64,000 bases of DNA from Alphaproteobacteria bacterium. GTDB taxonomy: Bacteria > Pseudomonadota > Alphaproteobacteria > RF32 > CAG-239. The position numbers and the translations under genes were made by a program. Under the pieces are notes generated by a model. It ran no database searches. It saw only the letters and a list, made by a program, of their open reading frames with translations, and had not been told where the DNA came from. The stretch spans positions 252 through 64,251 of the forward strand of contig JAFUSH010000046.1 in assembly GCA_017471705.1 (NCBI GenBank). The letters are read 5' to 3'. This document shows positions 11,628-37,290 of this stretch, in pieces; the stretch's first letter is position 1; each line of letters starts with the position of its first letter.

Positions 11628-11653
11628 AGTATAATCCTTTATACAACCAGACT

Positions 11654-20741: not shown

Positions 20742-21677
20742 ATGTATAAAAAAACGCAAACGCTCAATGACCTGATTTTGTGGATGCAGGACACAGATGA
20801 TGGTATTTCCCTTAAAGATATCATGGAAAAGTATGATGTCTCACTCCGGACAGCAGTCCGCATGAAAGATTCAATCGCCGAAAAATATCCTGAATTAAAA
20901 GAAATCAGCGGTCCATATAACACAAAACGTTGGTATTTACCTAAAGGCACCGGCCACGATATGGTCAGCTTTTCAATGGAAGAGATCCACGCGCTACAGA
21001 ATGCATCCAAACTTTTGGCTTCAAAGAAGATGATTGATTCGCGCTATATCGATAATGTCTTACACAAAATAAAGGCCCTTATCGGTAAAGATGCCATAAA
21101 CAGAATAGAACCGGATGCTGAGGCTCTTTTGGAAGCTGAAGGTTACGCTTTCCGGCCCGGACCAAAAATTATTATCAATACAGAACACTTAAAACAACTC
21201 CGGTACGCAATTATTGCGTGCAATCGGATTAAAATAAAATATGATTCTGTCCATAATAAAAACTGGCGTGAATTATTCCCATATGGCTTTTTATATGGCA
21301 ATAAGCACTATTTAATTGCTTGGGACCCGACAAAACGTAAAATGTGTCACTTTAACCTGAATAAAATAAAAGAAATTGAAGTCTTAAAGACATACTTTAA
21401 ACGTGATCTTCATTTCTCTCTTAAAGAATTCAGCGAACAGGCTTTTGGCGTTTACCAAGAAAAGCCGTTTGATGTTGAATGGTTGTTTGATGCAGAAGTC
21501 GCAGATTCAGCTCAGCAATATACTTTTCATCCTAAACAAGAAGCAATTCGGAACTCGGACGGTACCTTAACAGTTAAATTCCGTGCCGGCGGTGCTCGTG
21601 AAATGGATTGGCATCTCTACACTTGGGGAGACCACGTAAAAGTTATTAAACCGGAAGATTTTGATAAAAGGAAATAA
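20742..21677 (+). CDS. WYL-domain transcriptional regulator (BrxR/CapW-like position)
   Basis: N-terminal HTH 'ISLKDIMEKYDVSLRTAVRMKDSI' and a WYL-like core 'RELFPYGFLYGNKHYLIAWD'. It lies immediately upstream of the Ssp locus. Confidence 0.75.
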   Translation: MYKKTQTLNDLILWMQDTDDGISLKDIMEKYDVSLRTAVRMKDSIAEKYPELKEISGPYNTKRWYLPKGTGHDMVSFSMEEIHALQNASKLLASKKMIDSRYIDNVLHKIKALIGKDAINRIEPDAEALLEAEGYAFRPGPKIIINTEHLKQLRYAIIACNRIKIKYDSVHNKNWRELFPYGFLYGNKHYLIAWDPTKRKMCHFNLNKIKEIEVLKTYFKRDLHFSLKEFSEQAFGVYQEKPFDVEWLFDAEVADSAQQYTFHPKQEAIRNSDGTLTVKFRAGGAREMDWHLYTWGDHVKVIKPEDFDKRK

Positions 21678-21682
21678 TACTC

Positions 21683-21907
21683 TTGTGGATCAGCAAAGAA
21701 AAATACGAAGACATTGAGCGGCGCGTAAAAGAGCTTAACGAAGAACTTCAACGCCTCTATAATATGGCATACTTAGTTGATATAAAAAGAAATGGCATGA
21801 AAATGGTCATGACCTTTTGCCAAGGCGACAAAATGTTTACGATCGAGGCTGTGCGAATTATATCTGGAGGCAAAGATATATCAAAACTAGTTCCGCCCAC
21901 TGATTAA
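21683..21907 (+). CDS. hypothetical small protein (TTG start, weak)
   Basis: The 74-aa ORF overlaps the sspA 3' end convergently by 21 nt. No motif recognised. Confidence 0.2.
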   Translation: MWISKEKYEDIERRVKELNEELQRLYNMAYLVDIKRNGMKMVMTFCQGDKMFTIEAVRIISGGKDISKLVPPTD

Positions 21908-23068
21908 TTCAATAGCGGTACTGACATCGTCCATATTAGAAAAGCGGCCAACGGTGATTCGAAAAGAGTGTTCAGCTTCTTCTGTTGTCAGGCCAATTGC
22001 CTTCAAAACGTGTGATGGCTCTTGAATGCCACTAGTACAGGCAGAACCGGTTGAAAATGCTATTTTAGGCTGTAATGACAATATCATGTCTCGGGCATCA
22101 CGATTATAAAGCATAACATTAAGGTTTCCCGGATGCCTGCTTTCAATTGTGCCATTGATTTTTAAATCCGGGAATTTAGCTCTTAATCCCTCCAGTAATT
22201 TTGCACGCAAATCACTAATATACTGAGCCTCTGTGTCTTTTAAATCTTTCATCAGATTAAAGGCTTCGCCCATTCCTACAACTAAGAAGGTCGGCATCGT
22301 ACCGGATCTGTACCCACTTTGTTGACCACCGCCTCTTATAATGGGTGTAGGTTTTAATTCGCTTGCTTGATTAATATAAAGTGCGCCAACGCCTTTCGGT
22401 CCATATACTTTGTGACCAGATAAACTCATCATATCCACGTGATTTTCGACAACATCAATGTTTGCATACGCACCCTGTGCCGCATCAACATGAAAAATTG
22501 CACCTTTATCTTTGCACATTGCTCCAATTTTTTCTAAAGGCTGATTAACACCGATTTCGTTGTTTGTTGCCATTGTTGAAACAAGTAGTACATCATCTGT
22601 CAGAAGGTCTCTTAATGCATTAAAATCAACAATTCCATCGTGATTTACAGGAATTTTTTTCATGGTAAAACCAAAGCGTTCTAGAAAGCGTGATGCCCCC
22701 AGGACGCATTTATGCTCAATCGCTGAAACAAGGATCGTTCTCCTTTTTGACTTATCTAATGCGGTGTAGCCCATTCCAATAATTGCTAAGTTATTTGATT
22801 CTGTTGCTCCTGATGTAAAAACTATTTCGTCTTCAAGTGCATTAATATAATCAGCAACCATTCCTTTTGCACTTTCAATAGCGTCGTTTGCTTTCCATCC
22901 GAAAGAATGTTCTGATGAATGAGGATTACCGAATTTCGTCGTCACAAACGGAAGCATCTTATCTAAAACGCGTGCATCAAGAGGCGTTGATGCCTGATAG
23001 TCAAGATAAACACCTGTATCACCAGTATTTTCGCCGTTTTTAATTAAATTTGATAAATTATTTTTCAT
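21887..23068 (-). CDS. sspA: cysteine desulfurase (IscS/NifS class), SspA/DndA-type
   Basis: 'FTSGATESNN', PLP-Lys block 'SGHKVYGPKGVGALY' and active-site Cys loop 'STGSACTSG'. I moved the start to the ATG at 23068 (MKNNLSN), because the track start at 23218 would overlap sspB. Confidence 0.8.
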   Translation of the reverse strand: MKNNLSNLIKNGENTGDTGVYLDYQASTPLDARVLDKMLPFVTTKFGNPHSSEHSFGWKANDAIESAKGMVADYINALEDEIVFTSGATESNNLAIIGMGYTALDKSKRRTILVSAIEHKCVLGASRFLERFGFTMKKIPVNHDGIVDFNALRDLLTDDVLLVSTMATNNEIGVNQPLEKIGAMCKDKGAIFHVDAAQGAYANIDVVENHVDMMSLSGHKVYGPKGVGALYINQASELKPTPIIRGGGQQSGYRSGTMPTFLVVGMGEAFNLMKDLKDTEAQYISDLRAKLLEGLRAKFPDLKINGTIESRHPGNLNVMLYNRDARDMILSLQPKIAFSTGSACTSGIQEPSHVLKAIGLTTEEAEHSFRITVGRFSNMDDVSTAIELISGRN

Positions 23069-23160
23069 TTTTTTCACTTTTCTATGGAAATTTTTTTTTG
23101 AATCCTGTATTATCACTTTCAACTGGAGAATGTCACCAGCGAAAAAAAGGATAGCATAAA

Positions 23161-24099
23161 ATGAAAAATGAATCAACTCTAAAAAATTCAAAACCCGTTT
23201 TTTCGGGGCATGAAACATTTCCGCTTAGGTACGGATGGCTGAAAAAAGTGTACGATGCGGCTATCGCTGTGGAAAAGAAAAAAGGAAATATTTCCAAGGA
23301 CTTATTCAATAATATTGAGGCAATTTCAATCCTCGGCGTTGGTAAAAATATGGTTTCGTCAATGCGTTATTGGGCTCTTTATACAGGCATTTTAGCTGTG
23401 AATGAAGATAAAAATTTATATGTCACAGACTATGCAAAAAAGATTTTCGCGGATACCGGCTTTGATCCGTGGCTTGAAAACTATGCTACTCTTTGGCTAA
23501 TACATTGGAATTTGGCAACAAATCTAAATTTACTTACTTATTACTGGGTCTTCAACAGACTTAATGCGGCTACGTTTGATAAAGATTCACTTGTTGCATC
23601 TATTCAAGAAGCTCTCTCGGAGAATGATTTACCGGATGTTTCCCCCTCTACTTTAAAACGTGATGTAGAATGCTTCCTGGGGGTTTATTCCACCCGTTCT
23701 GCAAAGGAAAAATCTAACGAAGAAAGTATTGAATCACCGTTAACAGAGCTTGCCTTGATCTCCCCCCTTACACGTAGAGATTTGTTTCAAACAAAAGTTG
23801 GTGCAAAGCCTAATTTATCCGTTTACACCTTTATTTTCGGACTTCTAATGTTCTGGAAATTTTATTCACCTAATTCTAAGACTTTATCATTAGAAGCAAT
23901 TTGTTACGAAGAAATGTCGCCGGGCCGTATATTCCTTATTAATGAAAATGCTATTGGAGATTTTGCCCAAAATATTTCTGAAGTTACAAATGGTTTATTA
24001 GAATGGTCAGAAACAGCGGGACTAAAGCAAATCTTATTAAAAAAGGATATAGATTTTGAAAAAGAAGCCTTTAAGATCTTTGAAAGGAATTACAAATGA
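23161..24099 (+). CDS. sspB: DUF4007-family protein, SspB-type
   Basis: N-terminal 'FSGHETFPLRYGWLKK' is the DUF4007 signature. It is the first gene of the sspBCD operon. Confidence 0.75.
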   Translation: MKNESTLKNSKPVFSGHETFPLRYGWLKKVYDAAIAVEKKKGNISKDLFNNIEAISILGVGKNMVSSMRYWALYTGILAVNEDKNLYVTDYAKKIFADTGFDPWLENYATLWLIHWNLATNLNLLTYYWVFNRLNAATFDKDSLVASIQEALSENDLPDVSPSTLKRDVECFLGVYSTRSAKEKSNEESIESPLTELALISPLTRRDLFQTKVGAKPNLSVYTFIFGLLMFWKFYSPNSKTLSLEAICYEEMSPGRIFLINENAIGDFAQNISEVTNGLLEWSETAGLKQILLKKDIDFEKEAFKIFERNYK

Positions 24100-27000
24100 T
24101 GGAAAAAATGTCCGACATCGTAAAAATAAATACTAGATTTTGTCGTTCAATCAATATTAATCAAGATCTTGGAAACGCTGATATTCTTGCAGGTTTTATT
24201 TGTCCTGCTTCTTCTGAAATTGCTTTGCTCAATATAGCTGAAAACGTATACGCTACGGGGCAAGCCGCATTTACGTGGACAGGCCCCTATGGCTCAGGTA
24301 AGTCTTCACTTGCTTTATTTTTGTCTGCATTAATCGGAAAAGACAAGAAACTACGTACCCTAGCACAAAGTCTATTTAAGGAATCCGCAAAAGAAGAATT
24401 TTACTCAAAAATCAAAGTAAATGACGGTTGGGAAATTCTTCCAATAATCGGCGATAAACAGGATCCTGCAGTACTATTAAAAGAGGCTATCGAGAAGAAG
24501 CAAGGTAAAAAGTGCACAGACATTCTAAAATCAATACAAGAAATCGCTGATACATCAGATGGATTGCTCATTTTTATTGATGAAATGGGAAAATGCCTAG
24601 AGAGCGCGGCAAAAGGTCAAGGCGATGTGTACTTGTTTCAACAATTAGCTGAATATGTGTCAAGAAGTAATGGTAAAATAATCCTTATTGGAATTCTGCA
24701 CCAGGCGTTTGCAGAGTATGCGCGTTATTTGCCGCATACAATCCGCGATGAATGGATTAAAATTCAAGGGCGATTTGTTGATACGCCTATCAATACTGCA
24801 GGCGAAGAACAAATTGAATTGATTTCTAAAGCGATAACAACAGACTTTACTTCATCATCAATAAAGGATGTTGTTGAAAAAACGGTTACGTCAATTGCAA
24901 AAAATAAACTTATTACATCAAAGGAAGGTTTAACACAGTCACTTCTTCACTGCTGGCCTATTTCTCCAGTAGTAGTTACGCTGTTAGCTCAAATTTCAAG
25001 AAAAAGATTTGGCCAAAACCAGCGCAGTATTTTCTCGTTCTTGAGTTCCGGAGAGCCGAAAGCATTCAGAGACTTTATTAACTCAACAAGTTTTTCCAAT
25101 GATAAGATGTACATGCCGGAGGATTTGTTTGACTATCTGAAACTAAATCTTGAATCTTCTATTTTATCATCATCTGATTCAAAGATTTGGAACATTGCTA
25201 CTGACGTTTTGGCACGTTGCCAAGCCAAAGGAGCTTCCCTGGAACACATAAATGTCTTAAAAACGATTGCTCTGATTGATATGTTTAATGGTGCTTCAGG
25301 CCTTGTTTCAAATGAAGAACTCCTCCAGGCACTTTATCCAAAGGCAAATATAAAAGCTGTTATAAAAGATTTAACATCCTGGTCAGTCATTATTCTTAAA
25401 AAGCACTTAAACGCGTATTCAATTTATGAAGGTAGTGACTTTGATATTGAAAAAGCACTTGCTGAAGCATATGCCGCAATTCCAACGCTTGAGATTCAAA
25501 AACTCGTCGACATAGCTAATTTCAAACCGATTATTGCAAAACGCCATTATCATAAATACGGATGCATGAGATGGTTAGATATTCTGCTTACCCCAGTTGA
25601 AAATTATAAAGAGTTCTTGAACCATGAACATGATCACAGCAAGTCTGTTGGCTTTTTTGCGATCTTCCTCCCGCAAAACCCGACCGAGGAGCAGAAAGCA
25701 ACAGAAATAACGCAAGGTAAAAATAAATTTGATTTCCCTGTGTTCATGACCGTTGCAAAAAATACGCAGACAATTAATGAGTACCTAAAAGAATTGCTGG
25801 CCCTTGAGTGGATCCAAAAAAATAAAAATGAATTAGCCGGCGATCACATTGCACGCCGTGAGATAGAAAATAGACGACTAATCATTATTTCCCTACTAGA
25901 AGTCCAATTGAATGAAATTTTAACGGCTTCTGAATGGTATAAAAATGGCGAAGCTCTTGGTTTAATTAAACAGAATGAATTTAGTGTTTTAGCTTCCAAG
26001 GTCTGTGAACAGGTTTATCCTGAAACTCCTATCATCAAAAGTGAGCTAGTCAATAGAACAAAGCCTTCGGGAAGCGCAAATAGCGCACTGAATAATTTAT
26101 TAAAAGACATGGTTCTGCAGGAAGGCGAAGATCTTTTTGGTATTAAAGGATTCACGCCAGAACGCGGATTATTTAACATTTTACTTCAAGAAACAGGTAT
26201 CTATCGCTTGACAGATAAGGAAACATACGGATTCGGAGCCCCAAGAGCCGAGAATTTGTTAAGCCTTTGGAAAACGACAGATTCAATGTTCAAAAAGGTT
26301 AAACGTGCTGTTTCGTTAGCTGATGTATATGAACAATGGGGCAAACCGCCATTTGGTATTAAGGCCGGATTATATAATTTCCTAGCTCTTGCATATATGC
26401 TAAGCAGAAAAACAAAAATAGCAGTCTACAGAGATGGAACTTATATTCCGGAAATAAATGATTTATTGGTAGATTATTTATTGAAATCACCTAAAACAAT
26501 TTCATTAAAACTAGTTGATGCAGATGATGTAACAGGTCATATTTTGCCGGCAATTGCACAATTGTTAAATACGCTTCAATCTACTAATCAAATTCCATTA
26601 AACGCATCACCATTAACAATTGCTCGTAAATTAGTACAGATCATTGATAAATTGCCGCCTTGGGTATTGAAAACTAAGACGCTGTCAAAGCGGACGATAA
26701 AATTTAGGGAAATTGTTAAATCTGCAAACGATCCACATAAGTTGCTTTTAGAGGATATTGAGAAAGTCTTTTATGATGAAGTAGAAAACAAAGACGGCGA
26801 TAAATCTACCATCATTATTCAAAATCTGAAAGAAGCTATGGAGGAGCTTATCAATATTTATCCGGCAACAATGACCAACATTGCTTTGTTGTTGACAAAT
26901 GAGCTGGATGTTCCTCTCGCCACGCCAACGCACTTGGAAAAGTTGCGTGAGCGCGCTAAAAATATCAAAGGTGTATCAGGCAATTTCAAAATTGATGCAT

Positions 27001-27398
27001 TTGCGGCTCGTATTTCTACATTTAACTCCAGCCTTGCAGATATCGCTGGTATCGTAAGTTTGGCAAACAACAAACCACCGCATGACTGGATAGATCTTGA
27101 TATTGAAAATGCTAAAAAGGAAATCTTAAACCTTTGTACCGAATTCAAGAAAGCTGAGTTATATACGAAAGTCAAAAATCGCCCAGCTTCACGACAGGCT
27201 GTCGCTTTTATTGCCGGTATCGGAAATAAAGCTGAAGTTATCGAGGGCGAATTTGATTTGCTTACCGATATGCAATCTGACGTATCTAATTTAAAAAACA
27301 AAATTAAAGATGCTGTTAAAGATACGACAAACAAAAACGTACTTTTAGCCGCATTAACAGAAATTAGCATTGAGTATTTAAAGGCAGGAAATGACTGA
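24096..27398 (+). CDS. sspC: large P-loop ATPase, SspC-type
   Basis: Walker A 'GPYGSGKSS' and Walker B-like 'LLIFIDEMGK'. It overlaps sspB by 4 nt and sspD by 8 nt. Confidence 0.7.
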   Translation: MMEKMSDIVKINTRFCRSININQDLGNADILAGFICPASSEIALLNIAENVYATGQAAFTWTGPYGSGKSSLALFLSALIGKDKKLRTLAQSLFKESAKEEFYSKIKVNDGWEILPIIGDKQDPAVLLKEAIEKKQGKKCTDILKSIQEIADTSDGLLIFIDEMGKCLESAAKGQGDVYLFQQLAEYVSRSNGKIILIGILHQAFAEYARYLPHTIRDEWIKIQGRFVDTPINTAGEEQIELISKAITTDFTSSSIKDVVEKTVTSIAKNKLITSKEGLTQSLLHCWPISPVVVTLLAQISRKRFGQNQRSIFSFLSSGEPKAFRDFINSTSFSNDKMYMPEDLFDYLKLNLESSILSSSDSKIWNIATDVLARCQAKGASLEHINVLKTIALIDMFNGASGLVSNEELLQALYPKANIKAVIKDLTSWSVIILKKHLNAYSIYEGSDFDIEKALAEAYAAIPTLEIQKLVDIANFKPIIAKRHYHKYGCMRWLDILLTPVENYKEFLNHEHDHSKSVGFFAIFLPQNPTEEQKATEITQGKNKFDFPVFMTVAKNTQTINEYLKELLALEWIQKNKNELAGDHIARREIENRRLIIISLLEVQLNEILTASEWYKNGEALGLIKQNEFSVLASKVCEQVYPETPIIKSELVNRTKPSGSANSALNNLLKDMVLQEGEDLFGIKGFTPERGLFNILLQETGIYRLTDKETYGFGAPRAENLLSLWKTTDSMFKKVKRAVSLADVYEQWGKPPFGIKAGLYNFLALAYMLSRKTKIAVYRDGTYIPEINDLLVDYLLKSPKTISLKLVDADDVTGHILPAIAQLLNTLQSTNQIPLNASPLTIARKLVQIIDKLPPWVLKTKTLSKRTIKFREIVKSANDPHKLLLEDIEKVFYDEVENKDGDKSTIIIQNLKEAMEELINIYPATMTNIALLLTNELDVPLATPTHLEKLRERAKNIKGVSGNFKIDAFAARISTFNSSLADIAGIVSLANNKPPHDWIDLDIENAKKEILNLCTEFKKAELYTKVKNRPASRQAVAFIAGIGNKAEVIEGEFDLLTDMQSDVSNLKNKIKDAVKDTTNKNVLLAALTEISIEYLKAGND

Positions 27399-28227
27399 AA
27401 AAGTAAAACACGTTTTAGGAATATCGGGTGGAAAGGATAGCGCGGCTCTCGCTGTTTATATGCGTGATAACTATCCTGAGCTTGATATTGACTACTTCTT
27501 CACCGACACGGGAAAAGAGCTTCCTGAGGTTTATTCTTTTCTTAGCAAACTAGAAGGATATTTAGGTAAACCTATTTTGCGTATTAATCCGGATCGCGAT
27601 TTTGATTTTTGGTTGATGCAACACAATAACTTCCTGCCATCGGCACAGGCCCGTTGGTGTACGATTTGCATGAAACTTAAACCTTTTGAGGCTTGGGTCG
27701 GCAAATTCTTAAATGACGGATATACCGTGTATTCATATGTTGCTATTCGCTCAGACGAAGAATATCGCGAAGGCTATCAATCTCGCCATGAAAATCTAAA
27801 GGTAAAAATGCCATTTAGAGAAAATGGAATTGATAAAAAAGGCGTTATTGACATTCTTGAATACTCAGGGCTTGGATTGCCGGATTATTACAAATGGCGA
27901 TCAAGAAGTGGTTGTACGTTCTGTTTCTTCCAAAGAAAGATTGAGTGGGTTCGCTTAATGGAGAAACACCCGGATGCTTTTGAGGAAGCAAAAAGTTATG
28001 AGAAAAAAGCCACCGCCAGCGGATCACCTTTCACATGGTCAGAGCATGAATCACTCGAGGATCTATCAAAACCTGAGAGAGTAGCCCAAATTAAGCAAGA
28101 TTATGAAAGACGTCTAGAGCGGCTGAAAAAGCAACGCATGGCAAATCCACTTCGTCCTGATAATGAAGAAATCGATATGGATGATTTATATGGTAAATCG
28201 AAGGTTTGTCTTGCTTGCCATAAATAA
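27391..28227 (+). CDS. sspD: PAPS-reductase/PP-loop ATP pyrophosphatase, SspD (DndC-like)
   Basis: PP-loop 'GISGGKDSAA' and Cys clusters 'WCTICM', 'SGCTFCFF', 'CLACH'. Confidence 0.8.
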   Translation: MTEKVKHVLGISGGKDSAALAVYMRDNYPELDIDYFFTDTGKELPEVYSFLSKLEGYLGKPILRINPDRDFDFWLMQHNNFLPSAQARWCTICMKLKPFEAWVGKFLNDGYTVYSYVAIRSDEEYREGYQSRHENLKVKMPFRENGIDKKGVIDILEYSGLGLPDYYKWRSRSGCTFCFFQRKIEWVRLMEKHPDAFEEAKSYEKKATASGSPFTWSEHESLEDLSKPERVAQIKQDYERRLERLKKQRMANPLRPDNEEIDMDDLYGKSKVCLACHK

Positions 28228-28228
28228 T

Positions 28229-28735
28229 TTATATTAAATCCTCTAGATATTCTGCTTTTAGTGCGGCTATGGCTGAAAGGATATAATGACGGAAATCTTC
28301 CGGCTCCTTACCAATTATAAGCTTACCATCGCGGAAAATTTCATTAAACGGATAAATGCTGACCAGCTTCTCAATGCCTGTTTCAGCATATTCACTACAT
28401 ATTTCCAGGATCTTTTTAGAATCTGAAAACAAGGACATATCTTTTTCTTGATCTAACCAAGCAACAGCAATCAGCAAAGGCCATTCTTCATTTTGATCAA
28501 TCTGTTCTAGTGTGAATAGTGAATCTCTACGTTCAAGTGGTGTTCTTTTTCCTTCTTTGAAGCCAATAATACAACAAAGAGTGTAAATATTGGTATATTT
28601 ATCAAACACTGGAATATTTAGACCGTCTGTATTGTTTCTATTCGTACAAAATGATTGATAAAAATTTTTCCACTTTTGTGAAGTATAAACTGCAGGGGAT
28701 TTTTCTCCCGTTGTATTAATTATATGTTGTGCCAT
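28229..28735 (-). CDS. small Ssp/Dnd-associated protein (last gene of restriction operon)
   Basis: 168 aa. Its start shares nt 28735 with the ATPase stop. It possibly belongs to the 'dnd system-associated protein 4' type, from memory only. Confidence 0.35.
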   Translation of the reverse strand: MAQHIINTTGEKSPAVYTSQKWKNFYQSFCTNRNNTDGLNIPVFDKYTNIYTLCCIIGFKEGKRTPLERRDSLFTLEQIDQNEEWPLLIAVAWLDQEKDMSLFSDSKKILEICSEYAETGIEKLVSIYPFNEIFRDGKLIIGKEPEDFRHYILSAIAALKAEYLEDLI

Positions 28736-30747
28736 TAGATTGTGCTCCTTATCGGTTTCCAGTGATTGATATCTTTTTCTACTAATTTTGAAACTCCGCC
28801 AGAACTTTCAATTTCATAAATTTTGTGCCATGCACCTGATTTCTTTAGTGCATTCGCCTCATCAATTGTAAATTCTGTATCGGTTGTTAGCAGAATCCAT
28901 TGAGTGAGTAAATTTGGTAGTCTTTGAAGACATGCATCACGTGGTGCACCGGAAAGTCGACCGAAAGGTGTATCCATCAGTAAAGGCATTTCGAGCCCAA
29001 TAGCCACTTGCATGAGGGAACAAATATAAGAAATTGAAACAACCTGCCTTTGACCACTAGAAATTTGTGGCAATATATTTATATTTGACGGGCTTAATAC
29101 GTCTAAAATAAATTTATCAGATATTTCTATTCGAGATATTGCTTGAAGGGTTTCTTTATCTGCAATTTGTTTCATTATTTCTGTCGCACACGCTGATAAT
29201 TTAACTCTTAATTCATCGCTATATGCATTATAAACATCTTCAAGTGCCGAAGACGATTTTCTTAATAAATCAAGTTGTCGTTGGAATTCAGCTAATTTTT
29301 CATCTTGTTTTGAATATTCTGCACGTTTTTTATACAGTTCCTCATGTTTTATACGTTGTGCCGTTAATTCACTTTCTGACGCACCCTTCTTTTCTAAATT
29401 ACGCTTTATATCAGCATCAATATTGGCATTTCGTGTTGCATAATCTTTTGTACTTACACTCGCTTTCAGTTCACCATTGATACCTTGGACCTTTTTATTT
29501 AAACCTTCTTTTTCGTTTTTCTTTGAGGAATATTTTTGCAGAATTTCTTCTGTATCTCTGTTTATTCTTAAGCTAATTTTCTGTGTTAAATCTTTTGTCA
29601 TTTGATAAACTTGGAAACCAGCTTCAGCATACTTTCCTATACTTTTATTTAAGTAATCTTTCAAAATGTCGGCAGCTTCTGTGTGAACTTTTAAGTCATT
29701 ACCACAGATACAACGACCTCTTGTTAGAAGTTCTTGTATGAAATCATCCTTGATGTTAGATGGAAGCTCGCCACGGTCAGCACGCTGTTTTAAGTCATTT
29801 AATGCATCATTCACAACACTTTCCCCTAGGTATGCAGGAAGCGTTTTGAGTGTTTCTTTCATTTGCCGTCTTATTTCGCCTAAATCATCATCAATATTAC
29901 TAATTTCTTTTTCAAGTTTATCCTTTTCTTTTTGTTTTTCAGCACCTTCAGCAGAAGCACGTAGCTTATCAGCAATTTCTGCCTTTTCTTTATCAAGTAA
30001 AGCAAGCTCATTTTCAATTGTTTTCAAACCCGTTTCCAAAGCATCAATTGCCTTTTCGTTCTTTTCAATATCTTCATTTACTTTATCCAATTCTGCTGAT
30101 AAAGAATTGTCTCTAATCTCACGTTCAACGGATTTTTCAGCTTTCGAAAACTCGTTTCTGACAACATTTATTGCATCAAGACGTAATAAATCCGTAATAC
30201 CACGCTTGATATCCTTCATGCTTTTTGTAGATGGCTGTGTAAGTTCTTCCATTTGTTCACCATCAAATAAAAAGAAATCCTTATTTTTCTGATCAATTAT
30301 CGAATCAAGTATCTGCTTTATTTGATCGTGGTCAGTAATAGGAGCCTTTGTACTATTATTAACCGTCTGGACAAGTTTGACATCCCCATATTCCTGATTG
30401 AATTCTTCCCCTTGTTTTGCACATAGTATTGAACGGGAAAGTTCATAGATAACTTTATTATGCTCAAATTTAAGTTTTACAGAAACCTCAACGTAGTTAC
30501 CTTTTGCCTTTTCAACCAAGTTTTGATTAACCAAAACTAAGCCTTTATTGCGCTGTGCAGTGTCAAGATTATCCCTCTCAAGATACGTGTTACCATATAA
30601 ACAGAAAATTATTGCACGAAAAATACCTGTTTTTCCATAACCATTCAAGCCGTAAATCACCGTAACCTTATTGCTATCGCCAAACTCGACAGTGTTTTCA
30701 CCTGCAAATTGCCTAAAGTTATTCAATGTTAATGATAATAATTTCAT
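28735..30747 (-). CDS. SMC/ABC-type (DndD-like) ATPase
   Basis: Walker A 'GLNGYGKTG', a long coiled-coil middle, signature 'SSGQRQVVS' and Walker B 'PLLMDTPFGRL'. Confidence 0.8.
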   Translation of the reverse strand: MKLLSLTLNNFRQFAGENTVEFGDSNKVTVIYGLNGYGKTGIFRAIIFCLYGNTYLERDNLDTAQRNKGLVLVNQNLVEKAKGNYVEVSVKLKFEHNKVIYELSRSILCAKQGEEFNQEYGDVKLVQTVNNSTKAPITDHDQIKQILDSIIDQKNKDFFLFDGEQMEELTQPSTKSMKDIKRGITDLLRLDAINVVRNEFSKAEKSVEREIRDNSLSAELDKVNEDIEKNEKAIDALETGLKTIENELALLDKEKAEIADKLRASAEGAEKQKEKDKLEKEISNIDDDLGEIRRQMKETLKTLPAYLGESVVNDALNDLKQRADRGELPSNIKDDFIQELLTRGRCICGNDLKVHTEAADILKDYLNKSIGKYAEAGFQVYQMTKDLTQKISLRINRDTEEILQKYSSKKNEKEGLNKKVQGINGELKASVSTKDYATRNANIDADIKRNLEKKGASESELTAQRIKHEELYKKRAEYSKQDEKLAEFQRQLDLLRKSSSALEDVYNAYSDELRVKLSACATEIMKQIADKETLQAISRIEISDKFILDVLSPSNINILPQISSGQRQVVSISYICSLMQVAIGLEMPLLMDTPFGRLSGAPRDACLQRLPNLLTQWILLTTDTEFTIDEANALKKSGAWHKIYEIESSGGVSKLVEKDINHWKPIRSTI

Positions 30748-30948
30748 TTAGCCCTCCTTAGACAGTCTTGCTGAATTTATTTCAATTAAATGAGAAAGAC
30801 GCTGAGATATAGCACTATTAGACTGAGCTTCCTCCGTCATTTTTATTGCCTCTTTTACTGTAGCAGTGCATAATTCTCTTACTTTTTCATCCTCGATTTT
30901 ATTAATTTTATCTAGAGGATTAACCCTGTATATGGTTTCTTCGCTCAT
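30748..30948 (-). CDS. 66-aa protein, translationally coupled between helicase and ATPase
   Basis: Its start overlaps the helicase stop by 4 nt, and its stop abuts the ATPase start. No motif recognised. Confidence 0.4.
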   Translation of the reverse strand: MSEETIYRVNPLDKINKIEDEKVRELCTATVKEAIKMTEEAQSNSAISQRLSHLIEINSARLSKEG

Positions 30949-33137
30949 TCGTCATCTCCTGTTTGGCGGTTGATTTTTGTTTCGGCTTGCAACTCTTTGT
31001 TGCGATTATATAACTCGTAAGGACGAATGTCAAGTTCGTCAATAATTCCATAATGCTCGCAGACATGGGTTATTATCCCTCTTGCTCCAGATCTGTTTTC
31101 AGAACAATTGTTAAATTCCGCAAATCGTGGAAGTTCACGGTTTAATAATGAAACTGCAATTTTTGTATCTGGGCAGTTATCTATTACCCATGGGCCTACA
31201 ATAAAGTCATAAATATAGGCTCTATTTTTATTTTCGTGTAAACGCAAAATACGCCCACGTCTCTGAATAAATTCTTTAGGATTAGTTGTGCTAGACATAA
31301 TATAAGCACGTTTTGTTGCTGGCACATCAACACCTTCATCAAGGCACCTTATTGCAACTATTCCATCTATATCGCCATCTGCAAAACTTTTAAGAATTGC
31401 TGGACGATCTTTATTTGGTATAGTGCCTACAAACTCATGTACTTTTAATCCAGCATTTGAAAGGGCCTCTAAAACTGCTGGACATTCGCCTTTTGCAACA
31501 TAAAACAAATTATGTTTATATTCTTCACCTCTTTCTTCAGCCTCTTTTTTGTGCTGTCTGACCAATTTTACAAGTTCAGGAATTTTATTTTGTGCTTTTG
31601 CAACTAGGTCAGCTCGTTTTAATAACAAACCCTGTAATTTGTCCTCATCTTCTTTAGATTTTGGATTTTTTTGAAACAGTCTTGCTATTCTATCTGATAG
31701 CAAACTATATTCGTTAAGCTCTTCTTCTGTTAGTTCAATGGGAATAGGATAATATTCGTAAGGAGTAAGGTATTTTTCTCTAATGGCGCGATCCAAAGGA
31801 AATTCAATAACCGTTTTACCAAAATATGATTGAATTAAGGTTGAACCTTCATCGTCATACCATCTGATTGGTGTTGCAGATAAACCAATTCTATATAAAG
31901 AACTATCAAAAAGTGTTCTTTTATAGTTACTAGAACCGGCATTATGAGCTTCATCTGCGATTAATAACCAGCGAACTTTTTTTAGTGAATTTTGGATAAT
32001 CGACTGAAATTCATCATTAGATGCCGTTGCATACAAAGCCACAATACACAAATCTTGAATTTGGCAAGATTTGTATTGATTGATGCCAGCATTTAATTTT
32101 CCCATCCAATTGTGCTTATTTTCATAGCAAGGAATGGGATCATATCCGTTTTCTTTTAGATCACTTATCCATTGTGATGCAAGGTGTTTATAAGGAACTA
32201 AAACGACAAAACACACTCGTTTATTTTCATCTCTTAAACGATTAACCGCAGAAATAGCTGTAAAAGTTTTCCCCGTTCCAGTAGCCATTTCAAAGAAACC
32301 TTTACAATCATTTTCAAACCACGCGTCAATACCTTCTTGTTGATATTTCCTTAGAGTTCTCCTCTCGCCAGATTTTATTTTTTCCGCAATCGCTTTCTTT
32401 AAGCGTATAAGGTTTTCAGTATAGCGCGATCCAACTTCAATAATATTCCTCTTTGCAGTTTCTGTTAAGGAGTAAATCTTTAAATTTGAATGTCTTCCAT
32501 ACCATTTGTCGTCGAATTGTTTCATATGATCATTAGCATACAGAGATCCTTCACCCCAAGTGGTAAATATATTGACAGTTTCCTCATTTATAGATGCTTG
32601 ATGACTATCATTTTGCGAGCCTGCAACTACTATTGAATCACCATCTTTATTCGTAAATATAGATGTTTTAGAATGAAAGATTCCGCCTGCAAGGTTACCA
32701 CAAGGGATTGCAAATTTAAATTCTATATACCCTTCTTTTATCAAAAAGCTAAGAGTTGCTAGAGTATTTTCTTCCATCGCCTTTTGTAAAGCATCCGTTG
32801 TTTCTAATACTGTCTTATCAATTATTGCTTCTATTTCCGTATCAATATTTGTTGCTTTTTTTATGGCATTCCAATCATCTTCCGATAATTTAACAGAAGT
32901 TAAGATTCTTGCGTGACCACCTCGGACTATAAAATAAGATAAACCCTCTGCCACTTCTTTTAACCATGATGATGAGAAGAAACCAACTCCCCTTGAATAT
33001 TCAACGGTTGTTTTTAGAATATTATCAACAACATCCCTCATAATATTTGTATCTAGGGTTGTATAAGTTCTTTTTAACGATAATTCTCTAAAATTCTTCA
33101 CAATAGTTTCCCCTATATTCTGGTTTAATGCATACAT
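30945..33137 (-). CDS. PLD-nuclease + SF2 helicase fusion (phosphorothioation-system restriction-enzyme type)
   Basis: PLD HxK block 'FHSKTSIFTNKDGDSIVVAGSQNDS'. Helicase motifs 'EMATGTGKT', 'IADEAHNAG', 'LSATP', 'QRRGRILR'. The start may instead be the internal Met at 33041. Confidence 0.8.
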   Translation of the reverse strand: MYALNQNIGETIVKNFRELSLKRTYTTLDTNIMRDVVDNILKTTVEYSRGVGFFSSSWLKEVAEGLSYFIVRGGHARILTSVKLSEDDWNAIKKATNIDTEIEAIIDKTVLETTDALQKAMEENTLATLSFLIKEGYIEFKFAIPCGNLAGGIFHSKTSIFTNKDGDSIVVAGSQNDSHQASINEETVNIFTTWGEGSLYANDHMKQFDDKWYGRHSNLKIYSLTETAKRNIIEVGSRYTENLIRLKKAIAEKIKSGERRTLRKYQQEGIDAWFENDCKGFFEMATGTGKTFTAISAVNRLRDENKRVCFVVLVPYKHLASQWISDLKENGYDPIPCYENKHNWMGKLNAGINQYKSCQIQDLCIVALYATASNDEFQSIIQNSLKKVRWLLIADEAHNAGSSNYKRTLFDSSLYRIGLSATPIRWYDDEGSTLIQSYFGKTVIEFPLDRAIREKYLTPYEYYPIPIELTEEELNEYSLLSDRIARLFQKNPKSKEDEDKLQGLLLKRADLVAKAQNKIPELVKLVRQHKKEAEERGEEYKHNLFYVAKGECPAVLEALSNAGLKVHEFVGTIPNKDRPAILKSFADGDIDGIVAIRCLDEGVDVPATKRAYIMSSTTNPKEFIQRRGRILRLHENKNRAYIYDFIVGPWVIDNCPDTKIAVSLLNRELPRFAEFNNCSENRSGARGIITHVCEHYGIIDELDIRPYELYNRNKELQAETKINRQTGDDE

Positions 33138-36100
33138 TTTTATTTTGATCGCGTAACTCTAAACAACTTTTTTCTGTAAATAAGTCATTTTGAATCGATT
33201 TATGATTAAATGTTTCACTGTGCTTAAACACATCATTTCTTCTTAGTAGCCTCTCTAGTTTTTCTGCAGGCATGTACCATGTATGCGCAAAATCAGATAA
33301 AATGTACGCTACAAGCTGATCCTTTGTTTTTATATTAGTTTGAAAAGGATTTAATACAACTAAATGAAAAATTGTGAATGAACTACATTGAGAAAGGATA
33401 GACCGTAATAAATATGGAGACCATTCACATTCGTTATTCAGCACAGGTAAGTTGTTTTTAGAAACCACCTCAGTAAAACTCAGATAATTTTTTTGCGATG
33501 CTTTAAATAATTCTTCAATTAGATTTAATAATGAATTTTTAAGTTCCTCATTAATTCCCGCATATTCGTTAGTAATCCAACAATCTTCAGCAATCTCTAA
33601 AAGCTGATCTTTAATTTGTCCCTTTACATTGTATCGATGGAACCCATTAGCTTCACAAAAGTTATTAATTTCAGATGAAGTTACCCATTTGCGAGATCTA
33701 CATAAATTGTTAATCCAATTGTATAGAACATCCTTAGGCGTTGAACTTCTCGTTTGTCCTACGACGCCAGATGATGTTATTGAATACTTGAAAGTAGGAC
33801 AAAAAGCTTTAATAAATGCCGACATACTCTTTACATCTAAATCTTCTTGATTGTAAACAGATATCCAATCAGCAAAGTTATTTTTACGTATAATTTCCAG
33901 AGATACAAAGCCATTTTCTTCAACTTTTGCCTCAATTTTACCTACAAGTTTAAGCAGTTTTTCTTGGTTAATAGCAATACCAGCTCTATGAAAATATCCG
34001 TTTGCAGTTCTAAAAACATTGCTTGATGCGCCTAAATAGTTTGCTATTCTTAAATCATCCCATCCTAATGAGTGGAAATATTTTTCCACTGTTTCGTTTG
34101 GAATAATCCCTTCGCGGCCAGTAAAAAAAGATTCAAACACATCAACTTGCGTTGTTTTTTCCCATTCTGAACTACTGACAGTAAGTCGCTTAAAAGTTAG
34201 TTTAGGATCATTTTTCCTTTTCAAAAGACTAAACAATAAATAGTTTGAAAATATGCCGTTAGTCTTAAAATAGTTTTTGTTTTCCTCATATATTGAATCA
34301 ATAAGAAAGGAGTGTTTCTCTTGATTCAATTTTTCTTTGCAAAGTTGAAGTGCATAATCAACAGCAGATTCAGAGTAATTTATCGTATCAATATTACTGT
34401 ATTTACCTATATCAACAAGAATTAGTTTTGAATTTCCAGCTAAGCGTGAAGCTAAAGCATTAGGTGTTGATAAATCAATTTCTGGTAGTGCTTCTTGGAT
34501 CTTGGAAAAAATTACATCTGCATCTTTTCTTAAAAAAGCACCATTTGGATAAAGCGCATTAAATGCATCAAATATTTTTTCTGAATCTTTTTGAAGCTTT
34601 GCAATAAAGCAACCTTTCTCTTCATCAAATTCAAGGTAATTTTTAATAAAGTTATCGGAAAACTGTGTAATTAGTGTGGTGAAATTAGTTTCAGTATCAT
34701 CGTTATCGCTGTCTACTCTTATGTATTCTTTCAACCTTTCGGATAATAATACACCAATTTCATCTTTCGAAATATATTGTCCTAAATTTGATGTGTCGAA
34801 AACCTCACCTAAATCAACAGTATTTTTGATAAATATTTCCATATCAAGGTCTACGCTATAATCAATATTTTCATTTCCATTTGTAATATTGTTCAAAACA
34901 ACTATATAATCAGCAAGTGGTAAAAATTCAGGGGCTGAAATTGAAACAATATCACCATATATATCAAAAACAGAATTTATATCTGCTTCATAGGCATTCA
35001 AAATTTCAAGAAGTTTTTTCTCTTGTTTTACTTCTATTTGTCGTACACGTTCACGGGTTAAACCATACTTCTCCGCAAATTCTCGTAACGTAATTTTCTT
35101 TTTTGAAGCAATTCGGCCTAAGTATATGTCAAATTTTCTTTCGTCTTGCTTTATTGCCTCCTCAAATGACTTTATTTTGTCTGCTAAATTTTGGAATTTA
35201 CCAGTAAGAGAAATCGGATCCGCTGTTTCTTCAACAATTTCATATGGTTTGTTAATATCAATATTTAATGAACTTAGAAATGATTTAAGTTCATTTACGG
35301 ATCCTCTACCAACATTTTGCAATCTTGCAAATTTATCAATTCCAAATGATAAAATATCAGAAATTGTTTCTAGATTGTTATTTTTTAATGCATTCGAAAG
35401 GCGAACAGAAAATTCAGGCCTAAGTGCACTTGAATTTGCAATATAACTTGGAATTTTTTGAATAGATTCGTAATAGTCTTCAAGAGAATCTGATGGAAAA
35501 TTCTTTTTTAAATCTTGAATTAATCTTTCAATTTCTATGGCAGACTTCAGCCCCATAGAAGGTATTTTTTTTAAATCACTTAGATTGAATTTGAAAAGAT
35601 CCTTAATTGATTTATATCCAGCTTTTTGTAGAGCATTTTTAGATCGTACAGATACCAGTCCATTTTCGTATAGATAAGATATTGAAAATTGATCACTTTC
35701 ATATTGATAGTCGTCTACACCTGCTTTTGCCTTTTGAATTAAATATACAATTTCGCGAATTGATCCTTGCCCTAAATTTTGTATTTTATATAAATCTTCC
35801 GTTGACACTTCAAAGAGCTCATTCAAATAATTATACCCTGCATTTGTAAGCGCATTATATGATCTTCGCGACAACTTTCCTCTATCAAATAATGAATTAA
35901 TAGTAACTTGAGGAATATTATCCTGCGGTAAATTATTATAAAATTCTTCCTCAGAATTGTAATTATCTGCGGCAGTATCTACATTTTCAAAAATAATCTG
36001 ATCTTCAGAGGTATATACAAAATCTTTATTTTCATAAAACGTCGGAGATAGAATTTTTTCAAGAATACCAATTTCAATATTGCAAGATTCTGAGAGAACA

Positions 36101-36540
36101 AATATATTAATCCCGTCAAGCAAAAAATATGTAGTTAACCCATGATCTGTCAAATATCGATTAAGAAGGATACTTTCTCGTTCATACGAAATGTTTCCTT
36201 GAAGCGGCAATTGATCATTAGTTCTTGGATATTTTAATAACTTAGTTCCTTTTTCTGAACCTACAGAATATTTTTGTAATTTTTCAGAAAGAAATTTAAC
36301 ACCATAAAGCCCTAATAGTTGTATTGCTGTAATAGCAGAAGGATATGAGTATTTTAGAAATTCCCGTAGCATATCAGGTGTTAGTTCTCCAAATTTTTTT
36401 ATATTATTTCGAGTAAAAAGCTCAAATAGTGCTGGAGAATCATTTACTGATATAGTTCTACTCGATAAAAAACCAGGAATGTCGAACCCTTTAGATTCAA
36501 CTTTATGAAATAATTGAGCTAAATTTTTATAAAAAGACAT
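33088..36540 (-). CDS. 1150-aa protein with three RNAP alpha-CTD-like HhH repeats, a sigma70 region-4-like HTH and a large unknown C-terminal region
   Basis: Repeats: 'SRRSYNALTNAGYNYLNELFEVSTEDLYKIQNLGQGSIREI', 'SVRSKNALQKAGYKSIKDLFKFNLSDLKKIPSMGLKSAIEI', 'SVRLSNALKNNNLETISDILSFGIDKFARLQNVGRGSVNEL'. HTH: 'ITLREFAEKYGLTRERVRQIE'. Confidence 0.65.
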   Translation of the reverse strand: MSFYKNLAQLFHKVESKGFDIPGFLSSRTISVNDSPALFELFTRNNIKKFGELTPDMLREFLKYSYPSAITAIQLLGLYGVKFLSEKLQKYSVGSEKGTKLLKYPRTNDQLPLQGNISYERESILLNRYLTDHGLTTYFLLDGINIFVLSESCNIEIGILEKILSPTFYENKDFVYTSEDQIIFENVDTAADNYNSEEEFYNNLPQDNIPQVTINSLFDRGKLSRRSYNALTNAGYNYLNELFEVSTEDLYKIQNLGQGSIREIVYLIQKAKAGVDDYQYESDQFSISYLYENGLVSVRSKNALQKAGYKSIKDLFKFNLSDLKKIPSMGLKSAIEIERLIQDLKKNFPSDSLEDYYESIQKIPSYIANSSALRPEFSVRLSNALKNNNLETISDILSFGIDKFARLQNVGRGSVNELKSFLSSLNIDINKPYEIVEETADPISLTGKFQNLADKIKSFEEAIKQDERKFDIYLGRIASKKKITLREFAEKYGLTRERVRQIEVKQEKKLLEILNAYEADINSVFDIYGDIVSISAPEFLPLADYIVVLNNITNGNENIDYSVDLDMEIFIKNTVDLGEVFDTSNLGQYISKDEIGVLLSERLKEYIRVDSDNDDTETNFTTLITQFSDNFIKNYLEFDEEKGCFIAKLQKDSEKIFDAFNALYPNGAFLRKDADVIFSKIQEALPEIDLSTPNALASRLAGNSKLILVDIGKYSNIDTINYSESAVDYALQLCKEKLNQEKHSFLIDSIYEENKNYFKTNGIFSNYLLFSLLKRKNDPKLTFKRLTVSSSEWEKTTQVDVFESFFTGREGIIPNETVEKYFHSLGWDDLRIANYLGASSNVFRTANGYFHRAGIAINQEKLLKLVGKIEAKVEENGFVSLEIIRKNNFADWISVYNQEDLDVKSMSAFIKAFCPTFKYSITSSGVVGQTRSSTPKDVLYNWINNLCRSRKWVTSSEINNFCEANGFHRYNVKGQIKDQLLEIAEDCWITNEYAGINEELKNSLLNLIEELFKASQKNYLSFTEVVSKNNLPVLNNECEWSPYLLRSILSQCSSFTIFHLVVLNPFQTNIKTKDQLVAYILSDFAHTWYMPAEKLERLLRRNDVFKHSETFNHKSIQNDLFTEKSCLELRDQNKNVCIKPEYRGNYCEEF

Positions 36541-36578: not shown

Positions 36579-36607
36579 ATTTTATCCATTGACCTTAAAT
36601 AAAGCAA
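36579..36607 (-). promoter_or_regulatory. sigma70-like promoter of the five-gene restriction operon
   Basis: On the minus strand: TTGCTT, 17 bp, TAAAAT. It lies ~40 bp upstream of the ATG at 36540. Confidence 0.4.
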
Positions 36608-36671: not shown

Positions 36672-36711
36672 AAAAAAAGAACCCCGCAGGTGTTATTCCC
36701 GCGGGGTTTTT
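36672..36711. terminator. bidirectional rho-independent terminator downstream of HU
   Basis: AAAAAAAGA-CCCCGCAGG-(7 nt)-CCCGCGGGG-TTTTT. Confidence 0.75.
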
Positions 36712-36725: not shown

Positions 36726-36998
36726 TTACTTTACAGCTTTTTTCAAAACTGCACCGGCTTTGAACTTAGGAGCTTTTGATGCCGGGATTTTGATTTCTTT
36801 ACCGGTAGCAGGATTGCGGCCTTTGCGAGCGGCGCGTTTTGCTACTTCAAATGTACCGAAACCAGTGATTTGAACTAATTCACCTTTTTTCAAGGCTTTT
36901 GTTACAACTGCTACAACAGCGTTTACTAATTCATTTGCGGCGGTTTTAGATGCTTTTGCTTCTTTAGCAACTGCTTCAACAAATTCAGTTTTATTCAT
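36726..36998 (-). CDS. hup: HU-family nucleoid-associated DNA-binding protein
   Basis: 'MNKTEFVEAVAKE...ITGFGTFEVAKRAARKGRNPATGKEIKIPASKAPKFKAG' is the canonical HU/IHF fold signature. I moved the start to the internal Met (90 aa). Confidence 0.9.
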   Translation of the reverse strand: MNKTEFVEAVAKEAKASKTAANELVNAVVAVVTKALKKGELVQITGFGTFEVAKRAARKGRNPATGKEIKIPASKAPKFKAGAVLKKAVK

Positions 36999-37095
36999 GT
37001 TTAATTTTCCTTTCTTAACGTTAAGTTTATAGAGGTTCATGACACCTCCGCTTATGATTCGAGCCATTTTTGCAAGAAAAGTCAAACAAAATCTT

Positions 37096-37290
37096 TTAAT
37101 TTGTACATAAATCATCGTAAACCACATTGTTTCTATCAATTTGACGGACAGTTTCGGGGGTATCGTGCTCATAATCGGCATATACCGGTTCATATAAAAG
37201 GCAAAAATCACCGTTTATATTTGTTGTGCAACCGCTTAACGCGCTCAGGATCAGCCAGGCTGTCCCGACTATTCTTAGCTGTTTTAACAT
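37096..37290 (-). CDS. outer-membrane lipoprotein spanin (Rz1-like)
   Basis: Signal peptide with lipobox 'LSALSGC'. 64 aa. It overlaps the 3' end of the i-spanin-like gene, at the end of the lysis cassette. Confidence 0.55.
   Translation of the reverse strand: MLKQLRIVGTAWLILSALSGCTTNINGDFCLLYEPVYADYEHDTPETVRQIDRNNVVYDDLCTN

Follow-up and report, generated by a model that had tools for sequence, protein, structure and literature searches.

What is the role of the protein encoded ahead of a nuclease-helicase gene in an alphaproteobacterial defence island, when its own domains resemble parts of RNA polymerase (RNAP)? The question is raised by a 64,000-nt stretch (the window) of contig JAFUSH010000046.1, from assembly GCA_017471705.1 of an Alphaproteobacteria bacterium. 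The gene under study (the target) is the open reading frame (ORF) 33088..36540 on the minus strand. Coordinates are positions of the window unless another locus is named. The target is read here as a non-catalytic accessory of the PbeABCD system, a putative DNA-targeting or sensor adaptor for the PbeA nuclease-helicase, and this reading has about an even chance of being right. The target and its parts are as follows, where CTD is the C-terminal domain, HTH a helix-turn-helix, wH a winged helix, pI the isoelectric point and AF2 AlphaFold2.

33088..36540, minus strand: target gene; 1150 aa, ATG start; three alpha-CTD-like repeats, sigma-4-like domain and wH array; first in its operon, orthologues in the same slot.
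36016..36489, minus strand: N-terminal helical domain (residues 18-175); conserved block in the orthologue alignment, acidic, family-specific.
35728..35886, minus strand: alpha-CTD-like repeat 1 (residues 219-271); best Pfam RNA_pol_A_CTD stretch 222-266, PDB RpoA CTD match at E 4.5e-6.
35506..35664, minus strand: alpha-CTD-like repeat 2 (residues 293-345); Pfam and PDB matches, pI 10.
35251..35424, minus strand: alpha-CTD-like repeat 3 (residues 373-430); Pfam and PDB matches, the sole repeat common to all orthologues.
34996..35220, minus strand: sigma-70 region-4-like domain (residues 441-515) with its HTH at 483-503; Pfam, NCBIfam and PDB matches, pI 9.6.
33091..34995, minus strand: C-terminal wH array (residues 516-1150); about nine domains, from AF2 and Foldseek.

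The alpha-CTD-like repeats are clearly detected. An earlier reading of the DNA made from the letters alone (the sequence-only reading) had claimed three of them, and the Pfam model RNA_pol_A_CTD matches the target in three stretches with 113.1 bits (E 4.9e-33, cut-off 23.8). The NCBIfam rpoA models also match three stretches, and each repeat has a match among the RpoA CTD chains in the PDB. The strings quoted in that reading are located at residues 224-264, 297-337 and 378-418 for the repeats and 483-503 for the HTH. In pairwise comparison, the repeats are identical at 12-19 of 41 positions. The arginine equivalent to R265 is present in all three, and repeat 2 keeps R, N, G, K and S at the positions equivalent to R265, N268, G296, K298 and S299. 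The orthologues contain one to three repeats; repeat 1 is missing from most of them and the last repeat alone is universal. In repeat 3, R380, N383 and G411 are invariant (14/14 orthologues), and we take these to be the DNA-contacting R265, N268 and G296 of E. coli RpoA.

The sigma region-4 HTH, claimed in the same reading, falls just below the Pfam threshold in the target itself (Sigma70_r4, 21.8 bits, cut-off 24.1). It is backed by the NCBIfam models RpoH (E 3e-8) and RpoS (E 4e-6), which match residues 440-525, and by region-4 chains of RpoS, RpoH and SigA in the PDB (E about 1e-3). The match covers positions 205-282 of the RpoH model, which is the whole of region 4 (4.1 and 4.2). Three relatives pass the Sigma70_r4 cut-off (P0009 with 25.7 bits, P0014 with 33.3 and P0017 with 48.4; P numbers denote proteins and L numbers loci). 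Within the HTH, R496-E497-R498-x-R500-Q501 is invariant in 14/14 orthologues, and R496-Q501 is presumably the -35-contacting helix of sigma-70 region 4.2. At the level of sequence, the alpha-CTD and sigma-4 observation is thus confirmed far beyond chance.

This likeness to the RNAP alpha-CTD and sigma-70 region 4 is a domain-level homology in which the DNA-contact residues are common to both sides. The target is not RpoA, as it contains CTD-like repeats and no alpha N-terminal domain (NTD), and it scores 93 bits against TIGR02027, which has a cut-off of 227.8. It is not a sigma factor either: it has region 4 without sigma regions 1-3, and all sigma equivalog models are far under their cut-offs.

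The remaining C-terminal part, about 630 aa that the sequence-only reading could not assign, corresponds to approximately 635 aa without a sequence-family match in Pfam or NCBIfam, and its profile finds nothing among PDB sequences even at E 10. Structure modelling and a structural search, both proposed in that reading, resolve this part as a tandem wH array. The AF2 model, made from ten orthologues, has a mean pLDDT of 85.6 and a pTM of 0.45, and is composed of about nine consecutive helix-helix-helix-beta-hairpin units. In Foldseek against the PDB, it matches the tandem-wH proteins UFL1 (E 5.9e-6), TFIIIC tauB, SelB WH1-4, Dcc1, RPC62 and Vps25. These matches have low TM-scores, as the bead-like domains follow a different arrangement. 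The C-terminal 635 aa are therefore predicted to be an array of about nine wH domains.

The AF2 model of the N-terminal domain has a pLDDT of 83-92 over most of residues 20-170, with dips to 70-74. Foldseek returns no significant match to it, only alpha-CTD and XRCC3-type helix-hairpin-helix (HhH) matches at E>2. That this domain is a degenerate fourth HhH is a guess from the model. No catalytic domain is found in the target by Pfam, NCBIfam, PADLOC, PDB sequence search or Foldseek, and these searches show it to be made only of nucleic-acid-binding or scaffold modules.

The gene context is as informative as the domains. Four same-strand genes follow the target, each overlapping or abutting the one before it, as expected from the earlier claim of a five-gene minus-strand operon headed by this ORF. 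The junctions are, in order, a 50-nt overlap, a 4-nt overlap, an abutting pair and a 1-nt overlap. The 50-nt overlap with the helicase gene, which was also given earlier, is correct for the longest ORF; other gene calls place the PbeA start at Met13, which reduces the overlap to 14 nt. The target is translationally coupled to pbeA. The downstream genes and the modification genes beyond them are the following, where SF2 is helicase superfamily 2.

30945..33137, minus strand: PbeA (730 aa), HKD(PLD)-type nuclease and SF2 helicase; PADLOC PbeA E 7.4e-211 over 16-685, ResIII and Helicase_C.
30748..30948, minus strand: PbeB-like small protein (66 aa); conserved slot between PbeA and PbeC.
28735..30747, minus strand: PbeC (670 aa), CxC-type ABC ATPase; PADLOC PbeC E 4.8e-142, C346-I-C348 motif.
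28229..28735, minus strand: PbeD (168 aa), putative DndE-cognate (dnd_assoc_4); weak TIGR04062 match, PF27807 on the orthologous genes.
21887..28227, sspA on the minus strand and sspB-sspC-sspD on the plus strand: phosphorothioate modification; PADLOC SspA E 1e-134, SspB 5e-95, SspC 0 and SspD 3.5e-136.

The downstream four genes are a PbeABCD, or CxC-ABC, module. PbeA also has an N-terminal match to NCBIfam phospholipD_antiphage and scores 468 bits with dnd_restrict_1, under the cut-off of 600; its FHSK motif is invariant. The 66-aa ORF has no model match, as expected for PbeB, and is found in the same slot in four loci (the window, L001, L002 and L013) with 64-73% identity. The prototype PbeB is likewise 66 aa (PMC6459918). 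The 168-aa PbeD scores 29.4 bits with TIGR04062, under its cut-off of 74.25, and its orthologues carry PF27807. The Pbe operon is convergent with sspB-sspC-sspD, and sspA lies beyond these genes. The sequence-only reading had called the operon an Ssp-linked restriction operon. The Ssp linkage stands, and an Ssp-specific accessory does not: the gene is a Pbe accessory and the module is PbeABCD. Its statement that the target lies outside SspE and SspFGH agrees with the search in PADLOC v2.0.0 (E<=0.01; presence of SspF, SspG and SspH models unchecked), in which none of the five operon proteins matches SspE, SspF, SspG or SspH.

The 90%-identity protein cluster that contains the target also contains PbeA sequences (718-730 aa, 99% identity to the PbeA of the window). 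Either the clustering is at fault here or, in some assemblies, the target and PbeA are encoded as one fused ORF.

Relatives of the target are rare. Full-length relatives form 13 clusters among 5.8 billion proteins. A family-alignment pattern scan of 185,579 GTDB species-representative genomes finds no relatives, a genome scan with PbeA finds two distant loci only, and a metagenome scan finds the single locus L012, a 99% copy with essentially the same sequence. None are found in the IMG/VR scan or by tblastn against the PLSDB plasmids. In the orthologues P0004, P0005 and P0009, which are 40-55% identical, the gene order is the target, PbeA, the 66-aa ORF, PbeC, PbeD and a convergent sspDCB. With a profile of the wH array, 185 representatives are found in a set of 1.84 billion proteins; 148 of these representatives were inspected with local hidden Markov models (HMMs). 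A sigma-4 HTH stands directly before the array in 127/148, alpha-CTD repeats are also present in 68/148 and the N-terminal domain in 20/148. By these sequence matches, the target fits a rare superfamily, defined here, with the predicted arrangement [alpha-CTD]n - sigma-4 - winged-helix array. The contexts of its more distant members are as follows.

P0031: sspB-sspC-sspD-[target relative]-pbeA; the PbeA is 48% identical.
P0035: sspC-like-sspA-[target relative]-pbeA.
P0033: [target relative]-PbeA-like helicase (725 aa)-63 aa-ABC/SMC-type ATPase (671 aa)-159 aa; pbeABCD sizes and order, no modification genes in view.
P0039: [target relative]-PbeA-like helicase-63 aa-ABC ATPase-dnd_assoc_4 protein-GmrSD-sspB; pbeABCD order.
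P0037: conjugative element; overlapped by a downstream gene that is cut by the contig end.

The gene stands directly before, and overlaps, a pbeA or PbeA-like helicase gene in all eight readable cases (8/8; these relatives include P0004, P0005, P0009, P0031, P0033, P0035 and P0039). The sequence-only reading had proposed counting how often homologues co-occur with defence genes, and the relatives are indeed tied to them, in each of these eight cases by an overlap with the pbeA or PbeA-like start.

A plasmid survey through PbeA shows where the accessory is present and where it is absent. In tblastn, PbeA matches 41 plasmid records; twelve contexts were inspected, and a thirteenth (H25) is counted from feature names alone. 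An accessory gene of approximately 1020-1140 aa lies immediately before pbeA in Ruegeria, Pontibrevibacter and three L. plantarum plasmids. The Ruegeria and Pontibrevibacter Pbe loci are both linked to dndBCDE-cysteine desulfurase genes. The L. plantarum pLtBDGP2C and A8 loci (L019 5780-13055 and L028 2576-10023) are stand-alone, with an accessory of 1080-1141 aa that contains sigma-4. At the inspected L. plantarum loci with an accessory, PbeA is 455-458 aa and consists of the helicase only, without the HKD domain; another L. plantarum plasmid encodes a full-length PbeA without an accessory gene. In the methylase-linked Pbe locus of Aurantiacibacter, a 437-aa protein with alpha-CTD and sigma-4 follows pbeD. 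Local HMMs and Pfam find alpha-CTD-like repeats, sigma-4 or both in the plasmid accessories. NCBI names these "sigma factor-like helix-turn-helix DNA-binding protein", and "hypothetical protein" on the L. plantarum A8 plasmid.

The RefSeq accessories WP_152460869.1 (Ruegeria), WP_166195114.1 (Pontibrevibacter) and WP_022638424.1 (L. plantarum) resemble the target in that they are approximately 1020-1080 aa, overlap or abut the pbeA start, contain alpha-CTD-like repeats and/or sigma-4, and have a long C-terminal region. They differ in that they are too divergent for tblastn, are without the N-terminal domain, and are linked to dnd or to no modification genes. Among them, only the L. plantarum protein matches the wH-array profile, and this match is weak (domain E 1.6e-4).

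The accessory is missing at the inspected Pbe loci of Halococcus, Pseudanabaena, another L. plantarum plasmid, Chlorohelix and B. thuringiensis. It is also missing at two Ssp-linked Pbe loci, those of Rhizobium indigoferae and a Sphingomonadaceae plasmid. The experimentally tested archaeal PbeABCD has four genes and is without the accessory (PMC6459918). Within bacterial Pbe systems, the target family is an optional accessory with no fixed tie to Ssp, because many Pbe loci, including two Ssp-linked ones and the tested archaeal system, are without the gene. An Ssp-specific adaptor that lets Pbe read single-strand phosphorothioates was also considered; it is rejected, as the two Ssp-linked loci are without the gene and dnd-linked and stand-alone loci have it.

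The closest published relative of the whole operon is PbeABCD itself (PMC6459918). The four downstream genes, with PbeD as a putative DndE-like member, agree with it in content, order and sizes, and both stand beside phosphorothioate genes. The system has since been re-annotated as a CxC-ABC ATPase system, which comprises an HKD-SF2 nuclease-helicase, a small disordered protein, a CxC ATPase and a DndE cognate (PMC10853773). The published system consists of four genes, and its test in archaea was made together with dndCDEA; in the window, the module is coupled to sspABCD and headed by a fifth gene of 1150 aa. The operon thus departs from a four-gene-only definition of PbeABCD in that a fifth, co-translated gene leads it. 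PADLOC has no model for a fifth Pbe gene. No Pbe accessory is mentioned in the text of PMC6459918, in the text and one supplementary file of PMC10853773, or in a full-text literature search; a 2020 ABC-ATPase paper falls outside this scope, and a prior mention there is possible. The text of the SspFGH paper mentions neither Pbe nor RNAP and describes a different three-gene locus.

The proteins of the locus diverge at different rates. Identity to the window, in the order L013 / L002 / L001, is as follows.

Target: 55/42/41%.
PbeA: 79/69/66%.
PbeC: 85/73/67%.
PbeD: 82/73/65%.
SspD: 96/95/83%.

By these identities, the target is the most divergent and fastest-evolving protein of the locus, and fast divergence is typical for specificity or sensor subunits. 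The DNA-contact positions are unchanged in 14 orthologues although the proteins are only approximately 40% identical overall.

These results point to an adaptor. The target is most likely an adaptor of PbeA because the two proteins are produced together. A pI of about 10 makes alpha-CTD repeat 2 and sigma-4 basic, whereas the N-terminal domain is acidic and most wH domains are acidic or neutral. From its sequence, the protein is read as a basic, presumably DNA-gripping block flanked by putative protein-interaction or sensor scaffolds. In the proposed mechanism, the basic alpha-CTD/sigma-4 block would bind duplex DNA in the way known from UP/-35 promoter DNA, with the alpha-CTD part in the minor groove of A/T tracts and the HTH in the major groove. 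PbeA, and perhaps PbeBCD, would be held by the acidic N-terminal domain and the wH array, and/or these two parts would read a cue from the invader; in this way PbeA would be loaded or licensed on the DNA to be attacked. The core Pbe machinery would spare self DNA that SspABCD has phosphorothioated. The accessory, which would not be essential, would broaden or tune targeting.

Several points weigh against the adaptor reading. The whole target is acidic, with a net charge of -27 and a pI of 5.2; the first two wH domains carry -10 and -8. Given this acidity, most of the protein may not touch DNA. The pTM of the array is just 0.45, which leaves the arrangement of its domains undefined. The gene is dispensable for Pbe elsewhere, in the tested archaeal system, the two Ssp-linked loci and several others. 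The reading also rests wholly on homology and gene context.

The first alternative is that the target is a transcription regulator of the ssp-pbe locus that would auto-regulate its own operon, by analogy with the C-proteins of restriction-modification (R-M) systems or with DndB. The features relevant here lie upstream of the operon and beside sspA.

36579..36607, minus strand: candidate promoter TTGCTT-17-TAAAAT after an A/T tract; tentative, from sequence and alignment.
36680..36708, minus strand: intrinsic-terminator-like hairpin with an 11-bp stem, 8 GC pairs and a T-run; between the upstream HU gene and the operon.
20742..21677, plus strand: WYL-WCX protein beside sspA, likely a regulator; Pfam WYL and WCX.

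The sigma-4 HTH has an intact recognition helix, and the target is the first gene of the operon, behind the promoter-like element. This element is 39 nt upstream of the start codon and is partly conserved in L013; it was not called in a consensus promoter scan. NCBI also gives plasmid relatives Gene Ontology terms for transcription. However, at 1150 aa with about nine extra wH domains, the target is far larger than known regulators, and translational coupling to pbeA implies stoichiometric production. No conserved operator-like repeat is seen in the upstream regions of the target loci, which are poorly conserved. The WYL-WCX protein is likely a transcription regulator of the island. Its gene also adjoins sspB in L016 (3536-4513), the locus of a distant relative, and its presence beside ssp in two distant loci suggests a conserved regulator of Ssp/Pbe islands. 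A purely regulatory role for the target is less needed because this separate regulator is present, and it is considered unlikely.

Phages are known to take over host RNAP with AsiA-type proteins that bind sigma-4 and with Alt/ModA-type enzymes that ADP-ribosylate R265 of alpha. The second alternative builds on this: the alpha-CTD and sigma-4 modules would mimic host RNAP surfaces as a decoy or guard, phage early proteins would bind or modify them, the wH array would relay the event and PbeA would be unleashed. The homology to alpha-CTD and sigma-4 is genuine, all three repeats have the R265-equivalent arginine, the target evolves quickly, and repeat number varies from one to three among orthologues, as in a possible arms race. 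The accessory is seen in bacterial Pbe loci only, and is missing from one inspected archaeal locus and from the published archaeal system (PMC6459918). However, the conserved residues are exactly the DNA-contact ones, and DNA binding explains the arginines equally well without mimicry. The repeats are just approximately 30-bit matches, best to Firmicute alpha-CTDs, and are not close copies of a host rpoA. The module is also attached to many unrelated effectors, and a large wH array is needless for a simple decoy. A decoy is quite improbable; if true, the immune sensor would respond to the takeover of transcription rather than to features of the DNA.

Least likely of all is an RNAP tether, in which sigma-4 would bind to the beta-flap, or the alpha-CTD copies to surfaces of the activator type, and would let the Pbe nuclease-helicase ride on, or be recruited to, transcription complexes on invading DNA: region 4 is matched as a whole (4.1 and 4.2; RpoH model 205-282) and the alpha-CTD and sigma-4 modules lie side by side as they do at promoters (presumably the arrangement of PDB 3N97, which in this analysis is only a weak match to the N-terminal domain), but the target has no sigma region 2/3 core-binding parts and no alpha NTD, and there is no link to RNAP genes in any context examined. 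The sequence-only reading had proposed tethering either to UP-element-like DNA or to transcription complexes. The first part fits best, with the invariant contact residues and the basic modules; the second is the less probable of the two.

The same module is found in other defence loci. The target block from alpha-CTD2 to sigma-4 is homologous to that of a second group of approximately 980-aa proteins (hhalign probability 99.6). The C-terminal regions of this HEPN/HIRAN-linked group have no detectable homology to the target, and only alpha-CTD2 through sigma-4 align. In L005-L009, these proteins are part of a conserved cassette of HEPN_Swt1 (575 aa), a protein with three alpha-CTDs and sigma-4 (approximately 980 aa) and a HIRAN protein, near integrase/recombinase genes. 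From its gene content, the cassette looks like an undescribed candidate defence system.

In L010 (3743-9397) and L011, an R-M-like set is composed of Vsr, an 818-aa protein with alpha-CTD, sigma-4, HARE-HTH and wH domains, a 61-aa ORF, an SRA-Mrr_cat endonuclease and a Dcm methylase. In L033 (4861-12335), a 1444-aa protein is encoded directly after the hsdR gene of a type I R-M system; Z1, McrBC and NERD genes belong to the same island. The N-terminus of this 1444-aa protein is DUF4145 / REase_I-like (PADLOC PDC-M16A), and its other parts are a sigma-4 HTH and a wH array. A ZorC-EH-like stretch is present only in its relatives P0100 and P0159. Judging from these sequence comparisons, a module that recurs fused or adjacent to unrelated effectors is more simply accounted for by a general function in nucleic-acid binding or sensing.

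PglW is the closest described analogue of the target. Residues 376-533 match positions 811-976 of the PglW models (PADLOC 37.5 bits, E 1.7e-10; NCBIfam 32.8 bits, E 1.5e-8, cut-off 990), and in both proteins an alpha-CTD-like helical domain is followed by HTH or winged HTH (wHTH) domains. In PglW, an alpha-CTD-like domain and then three wHTH modules are read as the nucleic-acid-binding or sensory half (PMC12839542). PglW has NERD, pseudokinase, kinase and iSTAND domains and only three wHTHs, whereas the target has no enzyme domain, three alpha-CTD repeats, its own N-terminal domain and approximately nine wH domains. The target is not PglW: it has no kinase matches and no BREX genes nearby, and its partner is PbeA. 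The scanning subunits SspB/DUF4007, DndG and BrxA, each a triple wHTH, share the same design logic of a multi-wH non-catalytic protein with an ATPase or nuclease (PMC10853773, PMC12839542). The array of the target is about three times longer and mostly acidic, and no sequence relationship between it and SspB is detected (hhalign probability 0.3).

The first 37 kb of the window are a low-GC defence island that contains a methylase and GHKL-ATPase protein, hsdRSM, AAA_14/DUF4143, a serine recombinase, WYL, and the Ssp and Pbe genes. The GC fraction is about 0.30-0.37 up to approximately 38 kb and then 0.46. At 2837-12928, a 739-aa protein with two GHKL ATPase domains stands beside an N6/N4 DNA methylase (GC 0.28-0.30), and an AAA_14/DUF4143 ATPase is also present. 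The type I R-M set in the window is complete and comprises the following.

6477-8789: hsdR.
8786-9934: hsdS.
10182-11627: hsdM.

A large serine recombinase (Resolvase, Recombinase, Zn_ribbon_recom) is encoded mid-island at 16158-17873 and may mark a mobile element boundary. Just upstream of the Pbe operon, at 36726-37211, is an HU-family gene with a GTG start, a possible 71-residue N-terminal extension and an HU domain at 72-161; a strong terminator follows it. A lambda-like prophage at 38362-63496 directly adjoins the island. Its genes encode a phage tail protein, a GpJ-type tip attachment protein, DUF1833, a gp53-like tail fibre, a tape measure protein and a gpA large terminase. The terminase is at most about 54% identical to that of any INPHARED phage. 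Beside the tape-measure gene, at 47749-49020, the prophage contains a HipA-family kinase toxin gene (HipA_C and Couple_hipA). The only near-identical INPHARED match is a 202-bp stretch at 55674-55875, which is 95.5% identical to the human-faecal phage contig MT839404.1. No tRNA genes are found in the window.

PbeABCD has hitherto been described and modelled as a four-gene system, and its mechanism is disputed: no DNA cleavage was observed in archaea, although the system includes an HKD nuclease. A fifth subunit that recurs, is co-translated and is built of RNAP-derived DNA-binding modules would add a layer of targeting or sensing in many bacterial Pbe systems. The module plugs into PbeA, HsdR, HEPN/HIRAN, an Mrr-type restriction endonuclease and, by fusion, PglW, and it may help to explain how defence nucleases find their DNA. 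Should the module recognise promoter-like DNA or RNAP-hijacking factors, restriction and phage transcription would be linked through it.

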